A stretch of 64,000 bases of DNA, taken from the IMG/VR virus record IMGVR_UViG_3300027741_000028; one strand, written 5' to 3'. This DNA is from an uncultured virus (IMG/VR IMGVR_UViG_3300027741_000028) (lineage: Duplodnaviria > Heunggongvirae > Uroviricota > Caudoviricetes). A program made the position numbers and the translations under genes. Positions 34,019-45,887 of this stretch are shown in pieces. Every line of letters begins with the position of its first letter. Position 1 is the first letter of the stretch. Below the pieces are notes generated by a model. It did no database searches, was not told the origin of the DNA, and saw only the letters and a program-made list of their open reading frames with translations.

Positions 34019-34091
34019 ATATAGAAACACACTAGACGAGGCGACCTCGTGGCCACAAGTTCCTGCTTATCTCTAATGTGTTTTTATATGG
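34017..34091 (-). ncRNA. Stem-enclosed structured spacer RNA A
   Basis: CCATATAAAAACACATTAGA / TCTAGTGTGTTTCTATATGG closing stem enclosing two small hairpins. Confidence 0.55.
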
Positions 34092-34163
34092 TAGAGGCAC
34101 AGAGAATCGAACTCTGATTAATAGGTTAAAAGCCTACTACTTTAGCCGTTAAGTTATACCCCC
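34089..34163 (-). tRNA. tRNA-Lys(TTT) copy 1
   Basis: Cloverleaf, CTTTTAA loop. Confidence 0.92.
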
Positions 34164-34285
34164 AAAGGTATTTGATTTTGTGCTTTACGCAAGGCCTTAT
34201 TAGTCTTACGATGAACACCTGCTTTTCTAAACAATGCCAAGCGAACGAAACAGTTACGTTCCTTGACGGTTATCTTTCGCTTCAT
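34154..34285 (-). CDS. Very basic 43-aa peptide with stop codon inside tRNA-Lys
   Basis: AGGAG SD; MKRKITVKERNCFVRLALFRKAGVHRKTNKALRKAQNQIPLGV*; not in ORF track. Confidence 0.7.
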   Translation of the reverse strand: MKRKITVKERNCFVRLALFRKAGVHRKTNKALRKAQNQIPLGV

Positions 34286-34303
34286 ATACTACTCCTAAAA
34301 AAA

Positions 34304-34377
34304 TGGTGGACCGTGGGAGAATCGAACTCCCAATCTCGACTTGCAAAACCGATGTTATCCCATTTAACTAACAGCCC
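34304..34377 (-). tRNA. tRNA-Ala(TGC)
   Basis: Cloverleaf, TTTGCAA loop, G3:U70. Confidence 0.92.
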
Positions 34378-34540: not shown

Positions 34541-34548
34541 TAAATAAA

Positions 34549-34759
34549 ATGCTCTGCGTCCTGCGGCGGTAATTATATCGCATCAATCATCGGACTAGAC
34601 GAATAATCCACGACAACATCACGCACGACCTCCACCCGCTTCCCGACCAGGACCGTTCTCGCACTGCCAGCGGCCTTTCGGTTTAAAGACTACCACCCGT
34701 GAGAGTCACCTCACTTCTATCCTGCGGGTCACAGTATCCGCTAACAAAGCGGAACGGCT
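34549..34759 (-). ncRNA. ~210-nt GC-rich structured RNA of unknown class
   Basis: No ORF-track entry; several helices (CCGCT/AGCGG, GTGAG/CTCAC, GGTGGTAGT/ATTACCGCC, CCGAAAGG) between tRNA-Asn and tRNA-Thr. Confidence 0.65.
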
Positions 34760-34760
34760 T

Positions 34761-35398: not shown

Positions 35399-35473
35399 TG
35401 GTAGAGGCACAGAGAATCGAACTCTGATTAATAGGTTAAAAGCCTACTACTTTAGCCGTTAAGTTATACCTCC
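35399..35473 (-). tRNA. tRNA-Lys(TTT) copy 2
   Basis: Differs from copy 1 at one base in the acceptor stem. Confidence 0.92.
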
Positions 35474-35477
35474 AAAT

Positions 35478-35723
35478 TACCATACTAAAAGACATTAGGA
35501 TGTTTAACAGAAATAACAGTTTTGATCCTGCCCTACCGTGCCGTCCACGGACTTGTCTGTTAACCACATTACTTGCCAAGTTGTTCCAGCGTGACCACCG
35601 TATCCACTGCATCAAAACAGTTTCGTTTCCATCTTTCATGTAACTTAGTCATTCCAACTCCGTCAGTTGGGGGTGAACTAAATTACCTACTGGCTTGGTA
35701 ACCTAATATGCTTTAGTATGGTA
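35478..35723 (-). ncRNA. Stem-enclosed ~245-nt structured RNA C
   Basis: TACCATACTAAAGCATATTAGG / CCTAATGTCTTTTAGTATGGTA closing stem; internal CCAACT/AGTTGG and AACTGTTTTGAT/ATCAAAACTGTT helices. Confidence 0.6.
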
Positions 35724-36171: not shown

Positions 36172-36263
36172 TGGCGGAAGACGGAGGAGTCGAACCCCAT
36201 CCCATTTCTGAGAACCCAGTTTTCAAGGCTGGTCGCAGTACCAACACCGCTGCATCATCTTCC
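36172..36263 (-). tRNA. tRNA-Ser(TGA), possible 8/4 fold
   Basis: CTTGAAA loop, long variable arm, GGAAGATG/CGTCTTCC 8-bp acceptor. Confidence 0.85.
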
Positions 36264-38034: not shown

Positions 38035-38193
38035 TTAATAATAACGGTTTTGTAATAACCTGGTATTATATTCAAGCGTCAGTCTTTCAACATCGCCTTC
38101 GTTCTTGGGGTCCCTAGAGGTAATATATGATTCCAAATCATTTCCGTAATTACCACTTATTCGCTTAAAGAAGTTGTTAATTAGTTGAATCAT
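38035..38193 (-). CDS. Small hypothetical protein (52 aa)
   Basis: MIQLINNFFKRISGNYGNDLESYITSRDPKNEGDVERLTLEY...; ATGA-coupled to hsp20. Confidence 0.6.
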   Translation of the reverse strand: MIQLINNFFKRISGNYGNDLESYITSRDPKNEGDVERLTLEYNTRLLQNRYY

Positions 38194-38645
38194 TTGTCAT
38201 CACTCTCCTTGATGGAGATTTTCTTAATGGCGTCTTGTGCTTTGACCATATTTTCTAGCCAAATTTTAAGCATACCATTCATCATCTCTGCATCCTTGAT
38301 TTCTACTTTATCTGCAAGAGTAAAGGTGCGTTCAAACCCACGGTTTGCAATACCTTTGTACAGATAATCTTCAGAATCATCATCTTTAGATGCGGCTTTA
38401 ATTACGAGTTTATTTCCTTCCAAAGTCATCTCAATATCAGACTTAGCAAAACCAGCAACTGCCATCTCAATGACGTACTTGTTTTCTTTTACTTGTTTGA
38501 TATTGTATGGAGGATAGGATGCGGCCTTAGTTGCAGCTGCTGCAGCTTCACGCATAAGTGTTAATGTATCATCAAAACCTACGGTGAACGGTTGGATTTT
38601 GCTCCAACCAAAGTCATTACCAAATACATCTTTAATGTAAGTCAT
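38190..38645 (-). CDS. hsp20: Small heat-shock protein Hsp20 (IbpA-like)
   Basis: SYPPYNI, IEMAVAGF, YLYKGIANRGFERTFTLA, NGMLKI. Confidence 0.95.
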   Translation of the reverse strand: MTYIKDVFGNDFGWSKIQPFTVGFDDTLTLMREAAAAATKAASYPPYNIKQVKENKYVIEMAVAGFAKSDIEMTLEGNKLVIKAASKDDDSEDYLYKGIANRGFERTFTLADKVEIKDAEMMNGMLKIWLENMVKAQDAIKKISIKESDDK

Positions 38646-38844: not shown

Positions 38845-38873
38845 ATTATATCAGTATTTATACTGAGTGTCAA
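38845..38873 (-). promoter_or_regulatory. Composite sigma70 and late promoter upstream of hsp20
   Basis: TTGACA-N17-TATAAT with TATAAATA embedded in the spacer. Confidence 0.75.
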
Positions 38874-39277
38874 CCATTATTCGGTTTTTTACCAATATTG
38901 TATTTTGGTATCAATTGCCAATCATCTTTTTCTTTATGAGAAATTATTTTGATTTGTGATAAGAAAATAGGTTCTGGTACTTCCGTCTGTTTAGGATTTA
39001 CCAGTTTAACCAATCCCCAATCTTCCAATAGGTTTGCAATGGCATTCCTACGTGCTAAATCACTCTCTGAAATGTCTGTTGGTTTTCCATCCAAGGCAAA
39101 TAGTTCTTTGAAATGCACCACATAATATTGTCCACGTTTGTGGAGTATGTGGCATGATTGATATAAAATTTGGTCTTTTTTAGAAGCTACACCAATACGT
39201 GTTAACGTTTCACGTACTTTTAAAAAATCGTCTTTTTCATTTAATGTTACTTCAATTAGGTCATTAAGATTTACCAT
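38870..39277 (-). CDS. regA: Translational repressor RegA
   Basis: DDFLKVRETLTRIGVAS, LYQSCHILHKRG.YYVVHFKELFALDG. Confidence 0.97.
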   Translation of the reverse strand: MVNLNDLIEVTLNEKDDFLKVRETLTRIGVASKKDQILYQSCHILHKRGQYYVVHFKELFALDGKPTDISESDLARRNAIANLLEDWGLVKLVNPKQTEVPEPIFLSQIKIISHKEKDDWQLIPKYNIGKKPNNG

Positions 39278-44029: not shown

Positions 44030-45301
44030 TTATCTGCCAACTTGCGGCAGATATTTAGCCTTGGTTTCTTCCCAAGACATGAATATCAAATCATCGTAGA
44101 ATAGGTTTTCATAAGAAACTGTATTCTTCTTTTTCAACATTGATATTCGTCCTTTAGCATATTTGGTTTTCCAAATGTTTGCCAAAGCTTCTTCACTGGT
44201 GTCAAAAGACTTTACCAGTTGTTCATCACCAATCTCTTTGCGGAGATATTCATTGGTGTTATTATACAACGGAGAAAAATAAATTCCACGTTGATGTTCG
44301 GTACGAATAAGATGTTTTGGAATATCCAACTTACCATACGCAAAGTTTAATGTACGATTCTTGTGGTCACGTTTCAAAGGAAGACCTTTTGGATTCTTGG
44401 CTTCCCACCATTCAAAGTAACGGCGTGTATGATTCTCTTTTACCCAATCGTATACCATTCTCATGGTCTTTTTCGTAGGTTCAAAAGCAACTGAACCACT
44501 AGAGAAACCCATTTTGTTCCAGTGTTCAAGGCCATCATACTGAGATAGACCACCGGACTTAGTATTTCCATAAAGAGAAGTAGTTGTAACTCCAACAAGA
44601 ACATCACCATATTGTCTTTTCCAATCATTCTGTACTGTATCAGCAAGACATAACAATGCCAATAACTTACCGCCCATATAATTAAAACCTAGTGGTTGTA
44701 GGGGAACGATTGTAGAACCGATGGCAGTGTGATTAATCATGCCTTGTTGTGTCTTAACATCTCTGGCCCAACCAATTTCTTTATCTCTTGGAGTCAAATC
44801 CAAGAAGTCGGATGATATACAAATAACGCCTAGATATTTACCTGTTACTTCATCTACGATTGTGTAGTAAAGGTTACGACCAATATTAGAATTGTTTTTC
44901 ATTGTTGATGAAAAGGTGCGAATCGTATTCCACGTTTCTGCCAAATCACCATTGGATAATACTAATTTTGGTTTTAATTTTTCATAATCATCTGGACCCT
45001 CTGGCATCCAGAAATTTGTTTTGACTTTATCGACCAATGTTTTTTGACCAACATCAATCAACTGGTGGTCATCACCAAATAATGTAGTAATAGTTCTTGT
45101 GGGATACTTCTCATGCACTTCACACCATTTCTGGTACAAAGTATACTCACGCACATCCATTTGTGATGCGTAAGTTAAATCTTTGATGAGAGTTTCTTTA
45201 AGTGTATCGGTATCAATATGTTCAAATCGGTCTGAAGTGAATTCTTCAGACCATGTACGCCATTGTTCTTCTACATCAGGTATGTGCTTTTTGGTTGCCA
45301 T
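44030..45301 (-). CDS. DUF4338/DruA-like protein (copy 2)
   Basis: GRNL...GKYLGVICISSD..PRD..IGW, IVPLQPLGFNYMGGKLLA, TTTSLYG..SQYDG. Confidence 0.78.
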   Translation of the reverse strand: MATKKHIPDVEEQWRTWSEEFTSDRFEHIDTDTLKETLIKDLTYASQMDVREYTLYQKWCEVHEKYPTRTITTLFGDDHQLIDVGQKTLVDKVKTNFWMPEGPDDYEKLKPKLVLSNGDLAETWNTIRTFSSTMKNNSNIGRNLYYTIVDEVTGKYLGVICISSDFLDLTPRDKEIGWARDVKTQQGMINHTAIGSTIVPLQPLGFNYMGGKLLALLCLADTVQNDWKRQYGDVLVGVTTTSLYGNTKSGGLSQYDGLEHWNKMGFSSGSVAFEPTKKTMRMVYDWVKENHTRRYFEWWEAKNPKGLPLKRDHKNRTLNFAYGKLDIPKHLIRTEHQRGIYFSPLYNNTNEYLRKEIGDEQLVKSFDTSEEALANIWKTKYAKGRISMLKKKNTVSYENLFYDDLIFMSWEETKAKYLPQVGR

Positions 45302-45887
45302 TAGTTAATTGTTTCATCATCTTAGGGTTAAAGTATTTGCGTCTAATCTTTTCCAGTTTTTTAAGTCCAAACTGTAACGCAAGAGGTTTTACCCTTGAAG
45401 TATACATGATTCCGTTCATATGGTCAAGCTCATGGAGGAAACATCTTGCAGATATGCCATCAAAGATTGCCTCTTTTTTCACACCTGTGAAATCCTGGTA
45501 TTCTACCCAAACTTTTTTAGGTCTGGTAATTCTCAAGGTTAATAATGGCCACGATAAACATCCTTCTTCCATGTGTGATTCACCCTCAGTTTTAATGACT
45601 TTAGGATTAAAGAATGCCACATAATCATCATCGGTACCCATAACAAATACACGATATGGATAACCACATTGATTGGCAGATAAACCAAAACCATTATGTT
45701 TCTTGCAAGTCTCTACCAATGTAGATGCAAATTGATTTGGATCGACTGGTGGTTTACTGAAATCAAATTCTTCTATTGGTTTGTAGAGAATAGGCCAATC
45801 AGCAGGAACTAAGTCAAACGTTTTTATATCGACTTTAACTTTGGCTTCTTCTTCGGTGTCATATAGGACAATATCCTCATTACTCAT
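45276..45887 (-). CDS. def: Peptide deformylase
   Basis: GLSANQCG, EGCLS, HELDH. Confidence 0.95.
   Translation of the reverse strand: MSNEDIVLYDTEEEAKVKVDIKTFDLVPADWPILYKPIEEFDFSKPPVDPNQFASTLVETCKKHNGFGLSANQCGYPYRVFVMGTDDDYVAFFNPKVIKTEGESHMEEGCLSWPLLTLRITRPKKVWVEYQDFTGVKKEAIFDGISARCFLHELDHMNGIMYTSRVKPLALQFGLKKLEKIRRKYFNPKMMKQLTNGNQKAHT

Follow-up and report, generated by a model that had tools for sequence, protein, structure and literature searches.

A conserved small basic protein of phages and bacteria whose gene runs into tRNA-Lys, a candidate for tmRNA-gated expression from non-stop messages

In the 64,000-nt stretch of an uncultured virus of the class Caudoviricetes (IMG/VR record IMGVR_UViG_3300027741_000028; the whole stretch is called the window below), a minus-strand open reading frame (ORF) of 43 codons runs into the 5′ end of a tRNA-Lys gene, and its TAA stop codon lies inside the tRNA. 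The ORF belongs to an unnamed family of small basic proteins of phages and bacteria in which three kinds of RNA element are found at one and the same spot, just downstream of the conserved core: the 5′ end of a tRNA, an intrinsic terminator, or a long hairpin. These elements precede a stop codon, and in some of the hairpin loci the stop falls within the 3′ arm of the hairpin. Because the messages of this family appear, recurrently though not in all members, to be built to end before the stop, as are those of arfA and brfA, we read the phage peptide as a protein that would be made from a non-stop message and gated by transfer-messenger RNA (tmRNA), a regulatory idea that is probably right. Our best explanation as a whole, namely a conserved family with messages that recurrently end before the stop, gated by tmRNA and most likely of the rescue type, is one that we would put at slightly less than an even chance.

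The ORF is a real, conserved gene for a small basic protein. Its translation, MKRKITVKERNCFVRLALFRKAGVHRKTNKALRKAQNQIPLGV, contains 13 lysine or arginine residues (ORF listing). That it is more than a chance reading frame follows from its low in-frame ratio of nonsynonymous to synonymous variation (pN/pS) and from the recurrence of the tRNA overlap in 76 of 80 viral loci. Across 62 unique homologous cores of 27 codons, pN/pS was 0.25 in frame vs. 1.37 and 2.06 in the shifted frames, and the entropy at the three codon positions was 15.2, 10.1, and 31.8, so that variation falls mostly on third positions. A word-indexed protein search found 54 close clusters with 63–100% identity, mostly of exactly 43 amino acids (aa). 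Searched with a profile, 1.84 billion representatives yielded 539 clusters at E ≤ 1e-3, of which 69 were at E ≤ 1e-10. Members from phages and from bacteria have in common invariant R, G, H, and R residues and a near-invariant N, summarized by the signature RN..G.H.K..K..R, while the C-terminal tail past residue 38 is not conserved. AlphaFold2 (AF2), run with the alignment, predicts a single helix at residues 12–37 (mean predicted local distance difference test score, pLDDT, of 74).

In their source records, family members are called only “hypothetical protein”. Searches of Pfam, PHROGs, and NCBIfam gave no usable family match (the best was phrog_17461, at E 0.036 and of unassigned function), and a profile search of all PDB chains, which presumably include BrfA-ribosome entries, gave none at E ≤ 10. 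Near and distant DNA searches of cultured phages returned tRNA matches only. Two candidate identities were tried and rejected. The domain of unknown function DUF7230 (PF23876), a lead from the ESM Atlas with a score of 0.88, was over its cut-off in 0 of 5 genomes and gave no weak match at the family loci. Ribosomal protein bL34 (PF00468) had looked similar by eye; its profile matches another locus in 5 of 5 family-bearing genomes and never the family gene, and the hhalign probability was 0.1%.

The ORF occupies a 140-nt spacer that separates tRNA-Ala from tRNA-Lys within a set of 26 tRNA genes, all on the minus strand (ARAGORN). As tRNA-Ala is directly upstream, the ORF sits inside a multi-tRNA precursor. 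It ends CCT TTG GGG GTA TAA in direct reading of the minus strand, and with nucleotide 1 of the tRNA at 34163 and the TAA at 34156–34154, the stop is formed by nucleotides 8–10 of tRNA-Lys. An earlier interpretation of this DNA, made from the sequence alone (the sequence-only reading), had described an AGGAG followed by a 43-aa ORF rich in lysine and arginine with this very stop position, and the ORF listing, ARAGORN, Rfam, and direct reading all confirmed it. The 140-nt spacer folds no better than its shuffled versions (z −1.15), and a reading of the spacer as structured RNA was not upheld.

The overlap, which the sequence-only reading had seen at this one locus, recurs in homologs. In a first set of 80 related viral loci, the ORF enters the 5′ end of tRNA-Lys(ttt) and has its stop inside the tRNA in 76 (75 scored by script and one, L074, by eye); the other four comprise two loci cut by contig ends and two in which a hairpin located 13 nt ahead of a tRNA-Cys contains the stop. 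Counted along the tRNA, the stop begins at nucleotide 6, 8, 11, 14, 19, 21, 24, or 28. Between the invariant Ala codon and tRNA position +1, the linker measures 18–31 nt, in phages and tRNA arrays alike, and all three frames are therefore used for entry into the tRNA. The set includes 57 unique junction sequences and at least seven different kinds of partner tRNA-Lys sequence, and no linker contains a stop, though CAA and AAA codons within them are one change from TAA. With stops at many tRNA positions and linkers in all frames, the position of the stop is arbitrary, and what stays constant is the absence of an earlier one.

A second viral set, from a scan with a more distant subfamily, added 22 new non-redundant loci with the motif. 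Among these, 13 run into tRNA-Lys(ttt), with six of the 13 reading through the whole tRNA, five come from a subfamily whose ORF has a hairpin in its 3′ end, and four are arranged otherwise. In the phage subfamily that we call LYPI, the ORF 3′ end holds a 16-bp hairpin (−23 kcal/mol, z −4.6). In cultured phages, the only matches were Synechococcus phage BUCT-ZZ01, Acidovorax phage ACP17, and Variovorax phage V45v66, with none in T5-like phages. BUCT-ZZ01 is a cyanophage in which an annotated 48-aa coding sequence (CDS) overlaps tRNA-Lys and stops at tRNA nucleotide 19. The ACP17 homolog (1459–1626 of locus L001) is unannotated, and its similarity starts right after the stop of the upstream CDS, about 13 codons before the first ATG, GTG, or TTG; it may use an unusual start codon or be coupled to the upstream gene. 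Bacterial tRNA arrays (Rhodoferax, Burkholderia, Thiobacillus, and others) show the same neighbor, with tRNA-Lys directly downstream of the family gene in 11 of 14 loci (10 ttt and one ctt). In four bacterial contigs (L094, from a Burkholderia sp. metagenome-assembled genome, L092, L085, and L093), up to 34 tRNA genes are packed on one strand within 6 kb, with the peptide gene just ahead of tRNA-Lys; these may be prophages or other tRNA-array elements. Small shares of the window are present in 24 sequencing runs, 19 of them recorded as RNA. In the four runs examined, the metatranscriptome contigs derive mostly from the tRNAs of related phages; the ORF is touched by only two short pieces, one of them reaching just 16 nt into the tRNA, and they have no bearing on RNA ends, bridging, or level.

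Overlap between genes and tRNAs is in itself not rare, since these phages pack genes against tRNAs and sometimes tolerate overlap. As a control, we scored other ORFs of at least 90 aa, in the same loci and in the window, that end between −60 and +75 nt from a same-strand tRNA 5′ end (n = 40). Of these, 31 stop 2–52 nt ahead of the tRNA, mostly 3–9 nt, and nine overlap it. In the window itself, tRNA-Leu, tRNA-His, and tRNA-Asn follow 1, 6, and 7 nt after the stops of the phosphoesterase, HNH, and phrog_2650 genes, respectively. Set against 9 of 40, an overlap in 76 of 80 loci, spread over many independent junction types, is not background.

Besides freshwater phages and bacterial tRNA arrays, the family has free-standing members in bacterial chromosomes. 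Its profile matches 49 of the 301 genomes sampled from one bacterial order, with one match per genome save for one genome with two, and the named matches in a scan of genome contigs were mostly Burkholderiales. In 19 of 20 chromosomal loci examined, the gene is free-standing, 47–98 codons long, and without an adjoining tRNA. It is surrounded by housekeeping or island genes, with no conservation of neighbors (11 loci), and in three species of Polaromonas the gene follows that of an EamA transporter.

At 65 free-standing loci we compared the position of the intrinsic terminator with that of the first in-frame stop downstream of the core. A GC-rich hairpin and its T-run lie wholly upstream of the stop in 15 of the 65 (11 with a folding free energy ≤ −14 kcal/mol), calls that rest on our own criteria and on direct reading; two more loci have a probable in-ORF terminator with a weaker T-run, and in three the hairpin spans the stop. 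The in-ORF hairpins represent at least six unrelated sequences, and the two loci that were read directly show a perfect GC hairpin inside the frame with a T-rich run immediately after it. In one subfamily, the reading frame runs through the terminator and gives a conserved “..GRDDFPPFF..” tail. The T-run ends 10–26 codons past the core and the eventual stop comes 0–30 codons further on, a position that looks unselected. Among control ORFs of at least 100 aa, the same script scored 11 of 181, of which two are the family’s own terminators seen from spurious ORFs and three of the real ones are strong, which leaves 3–9 of 179 (Fisher p = 1e-4 for all in-ORF terminators and 4e-5 for strong ones).

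RNase P cuts precursor tRNAs at position +1. In the window, a cut at 34163 would give a stopless message with ..CCUUU as its 3′ end, and would take off the stop codon together with part of the last three sense codons. Should RNase P outrun the ribosomes, the non-stop product would be tagged by tmRNA, and trans-translation would thus keep the protein low. Under conditions that let it accumulate, the basic helix might then bind ribosomes with an empty mRNA channel in the manner of ArfA and BrfA.

This regulatory logic is already known, and it is the family and the tRNA-based device that appear new. In arfA, a stem-loop within the ORF leads to termination or to RNase III cleavage (PMC8012679, PMC6881298), and in brfA a rho-independent terminator lies inside the ORF; both genes are repressed by trans-translation (PMC6881298, PMC8012679). 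The suggestion of the sequence-only reading that the message is built without a stop is thus strengthened by the 15 free-standing relatives with in-ORF terminators, as in brfA and partly in arfA, and weakened by the many relatives with ordinary stops. The predicted single long basic helix also counts in favor, as the tails of SmpB and ArfB are helical in the mRNA channel (PMC8012679). Rescue proper, that is, an ArfA/BrfA-like factor acting on ribosomes with an empty mRNA channel, would be our best single guess for the function of the peptide, although we hold it only tentatively.

ArfA and BrfA are themselves small, basic, and not homologous to each other (PMC6881298, PMC8012679). ArfA resembles the phage peptide in being small (55–72 aa), with a basic tail and a stand-alone gene. 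Its message loses the stop through a stem-loop inside the ORF, so that tmRNA keeps it low (PMC8012679), a design that the phage gene would share. Unlike the phage peptide, which is predicted to be one helix, it is largely unstructured; the two have no sequence similarity, and truncation in the phage would come from RNase P cutting at a tRNA. BrfA of Bacillus subtilis shares the in-ORF terminator layout (PMC6881298) with 15–17 of the 65 chromosomal family members as scored by our criteria. However, it belongs to the Bacillus lineage and has two N-terminal helices and a β-strand that binds release factor 2 (RF2), and the window copy has a tRNA in place of the terminator. ArfT of Francisella is similar in length (~40 aa, against 43 aa in the window), depends on a release factor, and is unrelated in sequence to ArfA and BrfA (PMC8012679). 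BrfA and ArfT were set beside the family by their descriptions rather than by sequence.

A further parallel lies outside ribosome rescue. In the tRNA punctuation of mitochondria, tRNA excision sets the 3′ ends of messages and can leave an incomplete stop, which is completed by polyadenylation. As would be the case in the phages, excision of a tRNA leaves messages without a full stop; however, it serves compaction there, whereas the layout described here is confined to a single gene family and a single tRNA.

Several observations weigh against a tmRNA-gated rescue factor. The stop is present in the unprocessed precursor, and the first ribosomes could therefore terminate normally. The near-exclusive use of tRNA-Lys is unexplained, since any tRNA would give an RNase P site. 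Many relatives, including most chromosomal copies, have ordinary stops or no terminator in the ORF: among the 65 free-standing loci, the stop and terminator come in normal order in nine and no terminator was found in 36, and phages ACP17 and V45v66 have ordinary stops with no tRNA within 1.5 kb. Free-standing stops in homologs, which the sequence-only reading had named as evidence against its idea, thus do exist in these two phages and in most chromosomal copies, side by side with the tRNA-overlapping loci. A simple terminator scan of four loci did not list the in-ORF sites on the gene strand in three and listed the fourth on the opposite strand only, because its rule extends the stem through flanking A/T runs and so uses up the T tail.

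The same holds for kinship with known factors. The ArfA profile PF03889 (hmmscan, E ≤ 10) matched 0 of 4, 0 of 84, and 0 of 13 members (0 of 101 in all), while it does detect Escherichia coli ArfA and matches in three of the 301 genomes of the order. With hhalign, the probability was 0.04% when the family was compared with E. coli ArfA and 1.5% when four ArfA sequences were used, and blastp returned nothing, in agreement with the sequence-only reading, which had seen no ArfA homology. A resemblance to the “LFR” stretch of ArfA noted by eye was dropped, as hhalign did not agree with it. The Lys-His motif common to ArfA and BrfA, which contacts 16S U534 (PMC6881298, PMC8012679), does not occur in that form: the position preceding the invariant His is variable (V/A/S/T/E/P/K/R), and R or K comes after the His.

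The distribution of known back-up factors leaves a niche for a rescue role, although it gives no significant test of one. In 1000 genomes of Betaproteobacteria, arfA was reported in 37, arfB in 709, and rqcH in 0 (PMC11633108). The sampled order has ArfA in 3 of 301 genomes and ArfB in about 177. None of the three ArfA genomes holds the family, a comparison without power because ArfA is present in just those three. ArfB is found in 24 of 49 family-bearing genomes vs. 153 of 252 others (p = 0.15), and in 5 of 15 genomes whose copies have in-ORF terminators vs. 172 of 286 remaining genomes (p = 0.057), a non-significant trend toward complementarity that is uncorrected for phylogeny and genome completeness. 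Two genomes flagged as unpublished (G211 and G300) are counted in these tallies, and both lack the family.

The near-constant tRNA-Lys partner went unnoticed in the sequence-only reading, and the rescue idea alone does not explain it. The link to lysine is a serious rival or complement to tmRNA gating. As a rival, it would mean that the peptide shields tRNA-Lys from host nucleases, inhibits these nucleases, or aids the use of phage tRNAs, with the overlap ensuring co-production and the missing stop a side effect; as a full account we consider this improbable. Lys(ttt) is the tRNA that follows the gene in 76 of 80, 13 of 22, and 10 of 14 loci, in arrays that hold some 20 kinds of tRNA; the upstream neighbor varies, and the link persists even though the tRNA-Lys sequences diverge widely. 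The overlap, as a physical linkage, may help to preserve the pair. A selective rationale for exactly this tRNA is published, in that host nucleases (PARIS and PrrC-type) cut tRNA-Lys and a phage tRNA-Lys, for example in T5, serves as a counter-measure; however, the abstracts of these papers describe no peptide partner (PMC11464382, PMC10264068). One chromosomal copy, in a Chitinimonas metagenome-assembled genome (L103, 3743–5718), has for neighbors an HNH endonuclease and RtcB, an RNA ligase of the tRNA-repair type. On the other hand, the free-standing copies of the order (49 of 301 genomes) have no adjoining tRNA in 19 of 20 loci and no conserved neighbors, and the in-ORF terminators of chromosomal copies are left unexplained. 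No defense or anti-defense match was found in Pfam, PHROGs, and NCBIfam, beyond which no search was made.

Tolerated compaction is a more general possibility, in which the peptide has another role, loss of the stop is neutral in packed tRNA clusters, the C-terminus is irrelevant, so that whichever stop comes first in the tRNA is enough, and the peptide is made from unprocessed precursor. The close abutment of genes and tRNAs in these phages, mostly with gaps of 0–6 nt, and the overlap in 9 of 40 control ORFs speak for this, as do the unconserved tail past residue 38 and the stop held by the precursor. However, the frequency of overlap in the family is far above that background, and 0 of 57 unique linkers contain a stop where a single change would make one. 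The usable stop is likewise missing, through terminators, in chromosomes, where compaction is no issue. This leaves compaction with quite a low probability.

The ORF always invades structured RNA, and seven of its 43 codons are Lys codons, three of them at invariant positions. Translation-coupled control would build on this: ribosomes entering the tRNA or terminator would regulate maturation of tRNA-Lys (by sensing Lys-tRNA), or reading through would act as in pyrBI, in which the leader ORF runs through the attenuator, and the peptide would be secondary. Such control would not account for conservation of the amino-acid sequence (pN/pS 0.25) across phages and bacteria of very different G+C, with invariant residues other than Lys. 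In addition, genes downstream of chromosomal copies are not conserved (11 loci), many copies have an ordinary stop and terminator, and the distance from motif to stop varies from 12 to 16 codons and more. We regard it as very improbable. The strict pyrBI-type attenuator leader peptide was rejected, given no conserved downstream gene in the 11 loci and a peptide under purifying selection.

Equally improbable in our view is a protein gated by tmRNA that does not rescue, for example a plug of the 30S mRNA channel for shutdown or hibernation, or an inhibitor of trans-translation, made when non-stop complexes accumulate. It would draw on the same architectural evidence as the rescue factor, and the protein, predicted as a single basic helix, has no obvious second module for recruiting a release factor; against it, we know of no precedent for non-stop gating outside rescue factors. 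An arrest peptide was set aside because the distance from core to stop varies and free-standing copies exist.

Returning to the rescue factor gated by tmRNA, the lysine link may be accommodated in a two-part kit. Loss of tRNA-Lys would stall ribosomes, and mRNA cleavage would then flood the cell with non-stop complexes. The phage tRNA-Lys would replace the one destroyed by host nucleases, and the peptide would clear the resulting non-stop complexes. The family would then be a fifth, independently evolved tmRNA-gated rescue family, common to Burkholderiales-type bacteria and phages, with an RNase P switch in phages and a two-part kit with tRNA-Lys. We consider this full version unlikely.

Coordinates of the features around the peptide gene are collected in Table 1. 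The T-run between tRNA-Ala and the ribosome-binding site would form the 5′ edge of the peptide message once the 3′ end of tRNA-Ala is processed.

Table 1. The peptide gene and adjoining features in the window
Feature	Position	Strand	Evidence
tRNA-Ala(tgc), directly upstream of the ORF	34304..34377	minus	ARAGORN, Rfam
Run of seven T between the CCA end of tRNA-Ala and AGGAG	34297..34303	minus	direct reading
Shine-Dalgarno-like AGGAG; the ATG (34285–34283) starts 6 nt later	34292..34296	minus	direct reading
ORF of 43 codons and TAA; small basic protein of an unnamed family, signature RN..G.H.K..K..R	34154..34285	minus	ORF listing, pN/pS, profile searches
Overlap of ORF and tRNA-Lys, 10 nt; TAA is tRNA nt 8–10	34154..34163	minus	ARAGORN, direct reading
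tRNA-Lys(ttt), UUU anticodon; 5′ end at 34163 is the expected RNase P cut	34089..34163	minus	ARAGORN; Rfam tRNA model at 34092–34163, 63 bits

The window belongs to a T4-like myovirus of 36% G+C. It encodes DNA polymerase, UvsX, clamp, clamp loader, RegA, and a late sigma factor, and also the major head protein, portal, sheath, tube, terminase, peptide deformylase, and Hsp20. Three of its genes concern translation or folding, namely those for peptide deformylase (45279–45887), Hsp20 (38193–38645), and the RegA-type translation repressor (38873–39277). A second tRNA-Lys(ttt), at 35399–35473 on the minus strand, has a 245-nt spacer upstream, and a 67-codon ORF (35436–35639, minus) enters it and stops in the anticodon loop; this ORF has no visible kinship to the peptide family. 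At 36176–36263 (minus), a tRNA-like element scores 36.7 bits with the Rfam tRNA-Sec model (threshold 47) with no ARAGORN call, and may represent a 27th tRNA whose variable arm is long. The 220-nt spacer between tRNA-Thr and tRNA-Asn (34541–34760, minus) appears G+C-rich by eye for a phage of this composition; it has no Rfam match and folds no better than shuffles (z −1.36). One family member (L100, 502–3201) lies about 2 kb from a tmRNA gene, in an apparent island that also carries PIN/MazE and two Fic/Doc genes. Since ssrA is a frequent insertion site of islands, the nearness may be incidental.

Our literature search, which left most subscription journals uncovered, found neither the family nor a phage-borne factor of the rescue type described, nor any case in which tRNA processing makes a regulatory non-stop message. 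Even if the peptide has another function, its strict pairing with tRNA-Lys across distant phages is unreported in the literature searched. Known rescue factors such as ArfA, BrfA, and ArfT are small, lineage-specific, and mutually unrelated, and further ones are expected but hard to find (PMC8012679); about three in ten Betaproteobacteria lack a known back-up for tmRNA (PMC11633108). A family picked purely by its “no usable stop codon” architecture would be a concrete candidate to fill this gap in the Betaproteobacteria, and the architecture would also serve as a search rule for further rescue factors. If our reading is true, the peptide would be the first phage-borne rescue factor of this sort, and its message the first to be made non-stop by tRNA processing with RNase P rather than by a terminator or an RNase III site. 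It would also tie the tRNA clusters of phages to the control of ribosome rescue.

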